Positions 7,017 through 9,051 of a stretch of 64,000 nucleotides of DNA are shown one piece after another. The stretch is taken from NCBI RefSeq assembly GCF_988243305.1, contig NZ_OZ547136.1. One strand, given 5' to 3'. Made by a program: the position numbers and the translations under genes. The number at the start of each line of letters is the position of its first letter. The stretch's first letter is position 1. The notes beneath the pieces were generated by a model. That model saw nothing but the letters and a program-made list of their open reading frames with translations. It searched no databases and was not told the DNA's origin.

Positions 7017-7267
7017 AGCAATACCTATTAGTTAATTAAATATATGTTAATTTAGCGTTTATTTAAGGCATAACGCCCTCTATAAATAATCCGCAAAATA
7101 TCGTCGTAGCTGCACTCGATATTTTTAAATTCCTGTATCAAGTGCTGAAAATCATTTCATCGCCACTTCCAATTCCTTTCTGCATGGTAAGTAGTGAGGA
7201 CGAAAAGAAGAATATGATAAATATTGGTTCGCGGTAATCAGAGAGAGCCGCGACATTTGTGATGTTA

Positions 7268-7285
7268 TTCTTACAACTGTAAGAA
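7268..7285. promoter_or_regulatory. EvgA-box-like inverted repeat TTCTTACA-AC-TGTAAGAA upstream of frc
   Basis: Perfect 8-2-8 palindrome matching the EvgA consensus (TTCPyTACA N2 TGTAPuGAA), about 250 bp upstream of the frc start. Confidence 0.6.
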
Positions 7286-7528
7286 GCGCCGGTGATTTAC
7301 AAGTAAGGGTATGATTACGCCTTTTAAAGCGTACCATAAAACATAACATAATAAATGATTTGTGATGACACGGGATTATTGCGGTTTACTTTGAGGAAGA
7401 TAAAATGCGAGTTTATAGAACCGCGAGCGCCAAATAATTTTATGACCACAACCTGTCGTATTGTGGTCATAAAAAATTGTCGGCTGGAGGGAGTTAAATC
7501 CTTTACCTCAATATACTGCCTGTCAGCG

Positions 7529-8161
7529 TTAGTTCACAAACAGTGCTTCGCTATCGACGATGATTCCATCTTCCGCACCTTTAAGCGCCAGGTTTGCCTC
7601 GTAGTATTGCTTTTTATCAAGCAGTTTCTGCGCATCAGCAAGTGCATTACGAGTCTGTTTGAGCGGCATCAGATATTGGTTTTCCATTACGCCAACACCG
7701 GCCAGGCGCAGCTCTTCCATTGCGCCCTTTTTATCCCCTTTCGCCATTTTTTCGTTGGCAATTTTTATCGCGGCTTCTTTTTCGGGTGTCGCTACATAAC
7801 TCTCAGAAATTCCGACAGATGCATTAATGACAATATATTGGTCATCATTGACATTGGTCTTTTTACCTGGCTTAGCGAACTTTGCCCATTCGGTACTGTC
7901 ATCTGACAACAAAGCTGAAGCTTCATTGGTCAGTTCTTTTGCCTTTTCCGGATCGCCATGAAACAGAGCCAAGCGCGCTACCTGCACGTCACGCATCGCA
8001 TATAAACCTTGTTCAGAGATACGCTCTGCTGCTGCCGTTTTCTGGGTTTGCTGAACTTGCTGAGTTTGCTGTTGTGCCGCTACCGGTGCATTATCAGCCG
8101 CCCATACAGTTGAAGATGCCAGAATTGCTGTGACCATCGTAGCCATAATTAAACGTTTCAT
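7529..8161 (-). CDS. yfdX: YfdX-family periplasmic protein (EvgA-induced)
   Basis: 210 aa ORF with an N-terminal signal peptide ([21 protein letters not shown]) and a Q-rich region. Confidence 0.8.
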
Positions 8162-8258
8162 ACTTACCTCATTCTTTAACAGTTTTAGAAAACGCCGCCA
8201 TCATATTGGGTGAGCATGAAATGAGAAATCAGAGAGCAACGGTCATTTTGAAAGGGTT

Positions 8259-8276
8259 ATCTTACAGTTGTAGTTA
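8259..8276. promoter_or_regulatory. EvgA-box-like site (TCTTACA-GT-TGTAGTTA) upstream of yfdX
   Basis: Imperfect 8-2-8 inverted repeat of the EvgA-box type in the yfdX-ypdI divergent intergenic region. Confidence 0.45.
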
Positions 8277-8296
8277 TTATCGCAAGAAGTATTTTA

Positions 8297-8314
8297 GTCT
8301 TACAATTGTAGGAA
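8297..8314. promoter_or_regulatory. EvgA-box-like site (GTCTTACA-AT-TGTAGGAA) upstream of yfdX
   Basis: Second near-consensus EvgA-type palindrome, about 140 bp upstream of the yfdX start. Confidence 0.5.
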
Positions 8315-8456
8315 TATGCTTCCTGTCACAGAGAACTATTCTTATATACCAAAAAGAGATGTCATTTATTATATCGATGTAAATACTGATTAATTATATG
8401 TAAATACAGCAATAACGTCGTAGGTTTTCAGTGAACCATTTTCAGGATAACTTTCT

Positions 8457-8732
8457 ATGAAAGTAAACTTAATGCTTTTTAGCTTATTTTTATTGGTCTC
8501 TATTATGGCATGCAATGTTTTTGCATTTTCTATTTCTGGTGGTGGTAGTGAGGCGAGCTATAAAGAGACGGAAAAAACGTCAGCGATGACGACAACTCAC
8601 TCTACAAAATTTCAGCCATCACAGGCGATTTTGTTAAAAATGAGAGAAGATGCGCCACCATTAAACCTCACAGAAGAAATTCCGCCCCCTTTTCCGACAA
8701 AGGCGAATTATCTTATCCATCCTGTGCGATAG
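8457..8732 (+). CDS. ypdI: Small putative lipoprotein YpdI
   Basis: 91 aa ORF; signal peptide ending in a lipobox-like ...IMAC. Confidence 0.7.
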   Translation: MKVNLMLFSLFLLVSIMACNVFAFSISGGGSEASYKETEKTSAMTTTHSTKFQPSQAILLKMREDAPPLNLTEEIPPPFPTKANYLIHPVR

Positions 8733-8808
8733 CGTCTGTCACACGGCAGGTGAACAATCATGTCTGATGCTGATGTGAACACCTGCCCAAATGAGCCATC
8801 CTGACCCA

Positions 8809-9051
8809 CTACCGCCTGCCATATCCCACCATAAAGCGAATCATCAAGCCACAAGCCGGGGCAAGAAACATAAATATCCCCGTCACCAGTTCATTACCGC
8901 CAGTTAACCACATGGTGAAGTAATAAATGAGTGCAGCGAGGATCACCATGCCGAAGAAAGAAGAGACCGCCGATACCACGTTCAGTACCTGACCGATGTA
9001 TCCGCTTACGCAGACAATACACAGGGCGAGAAACATCCATAAATAAATCAT
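8809..9051 (-). CDS. yfdY: Small inner-membrane protein YfdY
   Basis: 80 aa ORF with two predicted TM segments. Confidence 0.7.
   Translation of the reverse strand: MIYLWMFLALCIVCVSGYIGQVLNVVSAVSSFFGMVILAALIYYFTMWLTGGNELVTGIFMFLAPACGLMIRFMVGYGRR

Follow-up and report, generated by a model that had tools for sequence, protein, structure and literature searches.

The yfdX–ypdI intergenic region

The window analysed here is a stretch of 64,000 nucleotides (contig NZ_OZ547136.1) from an Escherichia coli chromosome. Between its divergent genes yfdX and ypdI lie two inverted repeats of the EvgA type, referred to here as box 1 and box 2, and this report concerns these boxes and the promoters that they may serve. 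Across positions 7400–9000 the window is 100% identical to strain CFSAN061763, and most other complete genomes are about 97% identical to it over the same positions. The minus strand carries evgS (truncated by the window start), yfdE, yfdV, oxc, frc and yfdX, followed on the plus strand by ypdI, yfdY and lpxP. This is the K-12 gene order, and the gene identities match the RefSeq annotation of the matching E. coli genomes and of K-12. The intergenic region between yfdX and ypdI is 295 base pairs (bp) long with a G+C content of 33%. The genes and boxes are as follows.

7529–8161, minus strand: yfdX coding sequence, 210 amino acids, a periplasmic protein of the YfdX family (open reading frame list and RefSeq annotation, including K-12)
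8259–8276, no strand assigned: box 1, ATCTTACAGTTGTAGTTA, that is ATCTTACA-GT-TGTAGTTA, the weaker EvgA-type inverted repeat, proximal to yfdX, three mismatches
8277–8296, no strand assigned: linker, 20 bp between the boxes; the linker and one box together make a 38-bp unit
8297–8314, no strand assigned: box 2, GTCTTACAATTGTAGGAA, that is GTCTTACA-AT-TGTAGGAA, a near-consensus EvgA-type inverted repeat, proximal to ypdI, one mismatch
8457–8732, plus strand: ypdI coding sequence, 91 amino acids, a lipoprotein restricted to E. coli and Shigella (open reading frame list and annotation)

YpdI is annotated as a colanic-acid lipoprotein. All of its homologues with a source name come from E. coli or Shigella, and homologues outside Escherichia and Shigella, which were sought as an independent test, were not found.

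EvgS/EvgA is the two-component system that starts the acid-resistance and drug-efflux cascade of E. coli. The abstract of Masuda & Church 2003 reportedly gives one EvgA motif per upstream region, in six regions for seven operons, and is not known to describe a second yfdX box. EvgA activates yfdXWUVE (PMC3720670). For the dependence of yfdX expression on EvgA the same paper cites Masuda & Church 2002 and 2003, and it credits the 2003 study with locating inverted repeats, bound by EvgA, in the upstream regions of yfdX and of yfdW/frc. Acid stress induces yfdX, frc, oxc and yfdV (PMC10746267), and in Klebsiella pneumoniae yfdX is dependent on RcsB (PMC6394985). Control of yfdX by EvgA through a box of this kind is already established, and the EvgA site published for the sequence upstream of yfdX is probably box 2.

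Two EvgA-type boxes

The pattern scored was the 18-bp inverted repeat TTCYTACA-N2-TGTARGAA (TTCYTACANNTGTARGAA), reportedly the EvgA box consensus of Masuda & Church 2003 and the operator of the EvgS/EvgA system. This consensus was validated directly on K-12 targets. A K-12 scan returned one site with zero to two mismatches upstream of each of emrK/evgA, frc, safA, ydeP and yegR, and it also recovered both yfdX boxes, whose K-12 copies are identical to those of the window.

The box centres are 38 bp apart. From the yfdX start codon (8161, minus strand) the distance is 106.5 bp to the centre of box 1 and 144.5 bp to that of box 2, and from the ypdI start codon (8457) it is 189.5 bp and 151.5 bp respectively. 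These values agree with the distances given in a sequence-only reading of this stretch, which had described two near-consensus EvgA-type palindromes about 20 bp apart in the divergent region. Both palindromes are present at that separation, and box 2 lies exactly at 8297–8314. A site also exists at box 1, but the string written for it was a 17-mer from 8260 and the full 18-bp site is 8259–8276. The description as near-consensus suits box 2 but not box 1, which combines a good half-site (ATCTTACA) with a weak one (TAACTACA). The assignment of both sites to the EvgA type is borne out by the consensus and by an independent matrix (below), and yfdX is an established EvgA target (PMC3720670).

The window contains three sites with at most three mismatches, all of them in the yfdX/frc region, where 0.44 would be expected from shuffled sequences. 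At the local AT-rich composition, a given site would have such a neighbour within 60 bp with a probability of 0.0035–0.008. On these two grounds chance palindromes were rejected. A half-site matrix trained on the other EvgA targets, with the yfdX boxes left out, ranks the frc box first in the window (24.8 bits), box 2 second (20.5 bits) and box 1 third (13.0 bits), followed by a next best site of 11.3 bits; the other K-12 sites score 21 to 25 bits. By this score box 2 is a strong site, and box 1 would not be convincing by matrix score alone.

A second box with up to five mismatches was not found within 110 bp at K-12 emrK/evgA, frc, safA, ydeP or yegR, and a second box as a general trait of EvgA promoters is rejected for K-12. 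An origin of box 2 by duplication of box 1 is unsupported, as on inspection by eye the two 38-bp units are alike only in the box; the 38-bp unit does duplicate in present-day strains.

A common promoter layout

Six K-12 EvgA-target promoters were anchored on their boxes and read in the sense of the gene. They share a layout of box, 25 nucleotides (nt), an element TCYKAT, about 20 nt and a -10 hexamer, in which the element, TC[CT][GT][AC]T, occupies positions 26–31 after the box. The elements are TCTGATTT for yfdX (from box 1), TCTGATTA for frc, TCCTATTT for safA, TCTTATTT for ydeP, TCCTATTC for yegR and TCCTCTGT for emrK, and the -10-like hexamers, in the same order, are TATGAT, TATTCT, TATATT, TAATTT, TATTAT and TAAATT, starting at positions 53–55. 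In the predicted layout the centre of the box falls near -74 and the element spans about -40 to -33; the layout derives from a small and partly paralogous set of promoters, and all positions relative to a transcription start are predictions. Applied to the intergenic region, it gives the following features.

8226–8233, minus strand: predicted yfdX promoter-proximal element, TCTGATTT, positions 26–33 after box 1, predicted at about -40 to -33
8200–8205, minus strand: predicted yfdX -10 hexamer, TATGAT, with a predicted start near 8193 and a 5′ untranslated region of about 32 nt
8340–8347, plus strand: predicted ypdI promoter-proximal element, TCTTATAT, positions 26–33 after box 2
8367–8372, plus strand: predicted ypdI -10 hexamer, TATTAT, positions 53–58 after box 2, with a predicted start near 8379 and a 5′ untranslated region of about 77 nt

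The centre of box 1 thus lies at about -74.5 from the predicted yfdX start and that of box 2 at about -73.5 from the predicted ypdI start. In K-12 these predicted starts correspond to positions near 2,494,434 (minus strand, yfdX) and 2,494,620 (plus strand, ypdI); the start-site tables of Kim 2012 contain no entry near either. Box 1 towards yfdX and box 2 towards ypdI follow the rule of a box centre near -74, and the reverse assignments fail it. The layout rule holds in 15 of 15 directions that point towards a regulated gene and in none of eight control directions, among which are box 1 towards ypdI, box 2 towards yfdX, and evgA.

The element on the yfdX side recurs in this register at frc, safA, ydeP, yegR and emrK, as well as in the yfdX promoters of Yersinia, Buttiauxella, Dryocola and Klebsiella. 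A promoter scan reports TTCTCA-16-TATGAT, and the TATGAT hexamer is invariant in 12 E. coli sequences and lies at the same distance from the box in Yersinia; Buttiauxella has TATTCT instead. On the ypdI side one of the eight element positions varies in E. coli, and the element is not present in Yersinia vastinensis, which has no ypdI. The ypdI hexamer TATTAT stands in the register of safA and ydeP and is invariant in the 12 E. coli sequences, while its flanks vary.

For a statistical assessment an element matrix was trained on five promoters, with yfdX and ypdI left out, and Markov sequences were used as the null. The canonical offset has the top score on both sides, on the ypdI side along 140 nt. 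The null probability is 2.4e-4 for the yfdX element and 0.003 for the ypdI element, falling to 1e-4 when the latter is taken jointly with an equally good -10 hexamer.

The TCYKAT element has only TCYKA in common with the EvgA half-site and lacks its invariant CA. Its role may be that of a weak contact for EvgA close to the promoter, or of a specialised element adjacent to the -35 position.

The K-12 EvgA operators (ydeP, safA-ydeO, yegR, frc/yfdW and emrKY/evgAS) have the same 18-bp inverted repeat and the same downstream layout as the region described here. They differ in having a single box within 110 bp, where here there are two, 38 bp apart and directed towards divergent genes. The third site of the window scan lies upstream of frc and is a perfect EvgA box (TTCTTACAACTGTAAGAA) at 7268–7285 on the minus strand, followed on that strand and in the same register by CTCTCTGATTA (7235–7242) and TATTCT (7209–7214). 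The block CTCTCTGATTA of the frc promoter is the same as that in the yfdX promoter, and the two promoters look paralogous.

Conservation and copy number in E. coli

We aligned 12 E. coli sequences spread over the range of identity, 11 of which are distinct. Two of 32 specified box positions vary, compared with 10 of 24 positions in the linker and the N2 spacers (Fisher P 0.002). One of the two variable positions is an already non-consensus one in box 1, and the other is a G-to-T change in box 2 of L021, an E. coli lineage with a ypdI allele of 71% identity, which turns the box into the perfect consensus TTCTTACAATTGTAGGAA. The divergent alleles L021 to L024 retain both boxes. In the linker 7 of 20 positions vary, and its length is constant among the two-box sequences. 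Taking all predicted elements together, 4 of 60 sites are variable against 57 of 235 elsewhere (P 0.001). Such a pattern fits selection acting on the half-sites.

The central dinucleotide of box 1 (8267–8268) is GT or AC depending on the strain; these are reverse complements, so that the centre of the palindrome is mirrored while the half-sites stay fixed. The spacer of box 2 (8305) is likewise AT or GT by strain between fixed half-sites. L021 keeps the predicted ypdI -10 hexamer, and the sequence that directly follows it is rewritten.

The 38-bp unit is a tandem repeat whose copy number varies between strains. Strain EH53 (L018) carries an exact duplication of the unit, giving 2.4 copies and three boxes, and 414 of 5,426 complete genomes contain, at 100% identity, a 42-mer specific to the duplication junction. 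A two-junction probe, which is expected to match only where the unit is present at least twice over, matches four genomes at 99% identity or more. The top match and the only one of the four examined, IBS28, is identical over the full length of the probe, and Tandem Repeats Finder gives 3.4 copies in it, that is four boxes (L025, 364–491). The same program reported nothing for the window, where 1.5 units of the repeat are present (8259–8334). In the alleles with extra copies both flanking genes are intact and the outer boxes keep their own promoter geometry, while the distance between box 1 and box 2 is changed. The spacing between boxes is 18, 20 or 38 bp according to lineage, and 76 or 114 bp in the E. 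coli repeat variants.

The boxes in other genera

In an alignment across genera the conserved position is that of box 1, represented by TAACTACAGCTGTCAGAT in Y. vastinensis and by the yfdX-proximal box TTCTGACATATGTAAGAC in Buttiauxella. From the site that resembles box 1 to the conserved block CTCTGATTT and the -10-like hexamer this alignment is free of insertions and deletions. Apart from E. coli, the only species in it with a trace of box 2 is Y. vastinensis, whose degenerate copy (TTCTTACCGGTATAAGAC) has mismatches in the ACA/TGT core that is otherwise invariant. This species lacks ypdI, and arsRBC lies upstream of its yfdX; it keeps box 1 and the yfdX layout, and the element on the ypdI side is missing. 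The frc box is also conserved in this species.

The Klebsiella yfdX gene has a single box followed by TCTGATCC at positions 26–33 and TATTAT at 54–59. In Dryocola and Buttiauxella yfdX is flanked by a convergent gene for an EvgS-like hybrid kinase, in Dryocola also by one for an EvgA-like regulator, and an hdeD-hdeB-gadB (gadB-like) cluster is divergent from yfdX. The hdeD–yfdX spacer of Dryocola (L030, 4862–4897) and of Buttiauxella (L009) contains two abutting EvgA-type boxes with the half-site variant TCTGACA. The proximal box is in the yfdX register, and the distal box, read towards hdeD, has TCTTATTT at exactly positions 26–33. This region matches the kvhAS-yfdX-hdeDB cluster of Klebsiella pneumoniae (PMC6394985). 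It resembles the E. coli region in having boxes back to back, each in the register of its own gene, and a homologous yfdX promoter; it differs in that the boxes abut (centres 18 to 20 bp apart), in the TCTGACA variant, and in having hdeD and not ypdI as the partner. The yfdX loci of Salmonella, Hafnia and Edwardsiella have no box, and in the loci fetched they are not linked to evgAS or frc.

In Y. vastinensis (L006, 1–6612) YfdX is 83% identical to that of E. coli and is followed by frc, with EvgA-type boxes at both genes. An arsR-arsB-arsC operon lies immediately upstream of the pair, and this setting suggests that the yfdX-frc module was horizontally transferred.

Expression of ypdI

Published expression data place ypdI among genes that change together with the EvgA regulon. 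On exposure to glutathione ypdI is up 5.5-fold, compared with 9.8-fold for yfdX, 11.9-fold for yegR and 5.3-fold for ydeO (PMC5811628, Table 1), and the acid-response genes emrK, frc and oxc are also named as up in that study. In a gadX deletion at pH 5.5 ypdI changes by +0.85 log2, and every direct EvgA target listed changes by +0.6 to 1.0 (PMC4918353, Supplementary Data 3).

A proposed assignment of one box to each promoter

We propose that the region contains two EvgA operators back to back, each serving the promoter nearest to it, and we put the probability of this reading at roughly 0.55. On the yfdX side the order would be box 1, 25 nt, TCTGATTT, 20 nt and TATGAT; on the other strand, towards ypdI, it would be box 2, 25 nt, TCTTATAT, 19 nt and TATTAT. 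EvgS, activated by mild acid, would give rise to phosphorylated EvgA, a response regulator of the NarL/FixJ family, whose dimers would bind each palindrome, and the bound EvgA would drive transcription away from the boxes on either side. The TCYKAT element, which lies just upstream of the predicted -35 position and overlaps its start, would probably take part in the contact with RNA polymerase. A further possible role of box 2 is to aid the loading of box 1, which is weak. The transcription starts, the assignment of boxes to genes and the role of the TCYKAT element are what we infer from the nucleotide sequence. The sequence-only reading had suggested that the boxes may also affect ypdI, and this suggestion is supported more strongly than it was put, box 2 being in the ypdI register and ypdI co-varying with the EvgA regulon.

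Several points weigh against this reading. The seven direct EvgA operons of Masuda & Church 2003 reportedly do not include ypdI. The yfdX gene is among the most strongly EvgA-induced genes, and together with a weak box 1 this would fit a contribution from box 2. The score of box 1, 13 bits, is barely above that of the best background site, 11.3 bits. The element matrix is built from five sequences, and its leave-one-out scores are weak for frc and yegR. Homology among many of the 15 fitting promoters leaves about six or seven independent cases. The co-expression of ypdI is correlative and is drawn from long lists of differential expression.

The chief alternative is the double operator that the sequence-only reading had offered as a possible basis for the strong induction of yfdX. 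In this alternative the two boxes would form a cooperative operator for yfdX only, the high-affinity box 2 recruiting a second EvgA dimer to the weak box 1, and ypdI would stand outside direct EvgA control. A comparable arrangement is found in Bordetella. BvgA is a NarL/FixJ homologue of EvgA with a similar half-site (TTTCCTA versus TTCCTACA), and its promoters at fhaB and ptx have a strong primary inverted repeat and one or more weak secondary sites, a combination of strong and weak, upstream of an activator-dependent promoter, that the present region shares. Among the K-12 targets examined yfdX is alone in having two boxes within 110 bp, the linker is constant in length in the two-box E. coli sequences, and ypdI is not known to be listed as a direct EvgA target. 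However, BvgA dimers occupy contiguous sites on a single helical face, repeated every 22 bp or so down to the -35 region, whereas a spacing of 38 bp amounts to 3.6 helical turns and would set the two dimers on roughly opposite faces. Also unlike the BvgA promoters, the strong box here has a promoter of its own on the opposite strand. Between box 1 and the core promoter no box with up to five mismatches was found, only the half-site-like TCYKAT at about -40, and a cooperative multi-site array of the BvgA type was rejected, the centres being 38 bp (3.6 turns) apart with no intermediate site detected.

Of the two boxes only box 1 is in the register common to the other EvgA-activated promoters, box 2 lying 38 bp farther upstream of yfdX, and the other K-12 EvgA promoters have no second box. 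Box 2 also has a complete canonical layout towards ypdI, with a joint null probability of about 1e-4, and ypdI co-varies with the EvgA regulon. In Yersinia, where yfdX is kept and ypdI is absent, box 2 decays, and the distance between the boxes varies among lineages and among E. coli alleles. We consider the double operator unlikely, though it keeps a real share of the probability. Two divergent promoters are the best-supported description of the mechanism, preferred over a spacing-dependent cooperative operator because of the 3.6 turns, the variable distance between boxes, the decay of box 2 where ypdI is missing and the common alleles with extra copies. Given the weakness of box 1 and the strong induction of yfdX, it is still plausible that box 2 assists in the loading of box 1, alongside the assignment of one box to each promoter.

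It is improbable that only box 2 is functional, for yfdX, ypdI or both, with box 1 a chance match or a decayed relic. Box 1 does have three mismatches, one of them at the otherwise almost invariant C in position 3 of one half-site, and a score near the background maximum. Yet such a site within 60 bp of box 2 has a probability below 0.01, and in E. coli the spacer of box 1 and the linker next to it vary but its half-sites do not. The position retained in Yersinia, Buttiauxella, Dryocola and Klebsiella is that of box 1, which alone is in register with the conserved core promoter of yfdX.

Very improbable is a negative role of the boxes, or a role for another regulator; EvgA or another NarL/FixJ protein such as RcsB could, for example, occlude a promoter lying between and across the boxes. 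A promoter scan does report a promoter-like sequence of the extended -10 type there (minus strand, 8305–8276; TTGTAA, 18 nt, TGcGATAAT). In one half of the linker TGCGATAAT shows no variation in E. coli and is also conserved in Y. vastinensis, whereas the other half is variable, and RcsB dependence of yfdX is on record in Klebsiella pneumoniae (PMC6394985). Against this, EvgA induces and does not repress yfdX (PMC3720670), which goes up on acid stress (PMC10746267). Buttiauxella, Dryocola and Klebsiella lack the candidate promoter, and the boxes match the consensus for EvgA, not the motif for RcsB that PMC6394985 quotes.

The proposed assignment of one box to each divergent promoter can be combined with the layout and the copy-number variation. 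The combined claim is that ypdI is an unrecognised direct EvgA target through box 2, that EvgA promoters in general have a strict layout, implying a second, promoter-proximal contact for EvgA or RNA polymerase near -38, and that two to four or more box copies could tune the acid induction of yfdX and ypdI; we would place it slightly short of an even chance. What this may add to existing knowledge is the direct targeting of ypdI, the layout of the promoters and the polymorphism in box copy number. These additions are incremental; the finding supplies detail on a regulon already known, does not amount to a new kind of system and leaves the understanding of how response regulators work unchanged. 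The exact EvgA promoters and their geometry matter for RegulonDB, for iModulons and for the prediction of sites in other enterobacteria. If each promoter does have its own box, ypdI, an orphan lipoprotein linked to colanic acid, would join the acid-induced envelope response, the layout would predict EvgA targets more sharply than the palindrome alone, and the 38-bp copy-number variants would be natural alleles in which to test operator number against induction.

Other sequence features

A search for known RNA families at the site of the boxes gave no match. The extended -10 candidate on the minus strand (8276–8305) spans the linker, with its -35 hexamer in box 2 and its predicted start in box 1. 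At 8330–8343 on the minus strand, overlapping the predicted ypdI element, TAAGAATAGTTCTC agrees at 11 of 14 positions with the RcsAB box consensus TaAGaatatTCctA; the block 8329–8345 is invariant in the 12 E. coli sequences. A terminator-like hairpin of 15 pairs (7438–7474, minus strand) lies directly 3′ of yfdX and upstream of the frc box. This hairpin fits an organisation in which yfdX and frc-oxc-yfdV-yfdE are separate transcription units, each with its own EvgA box.

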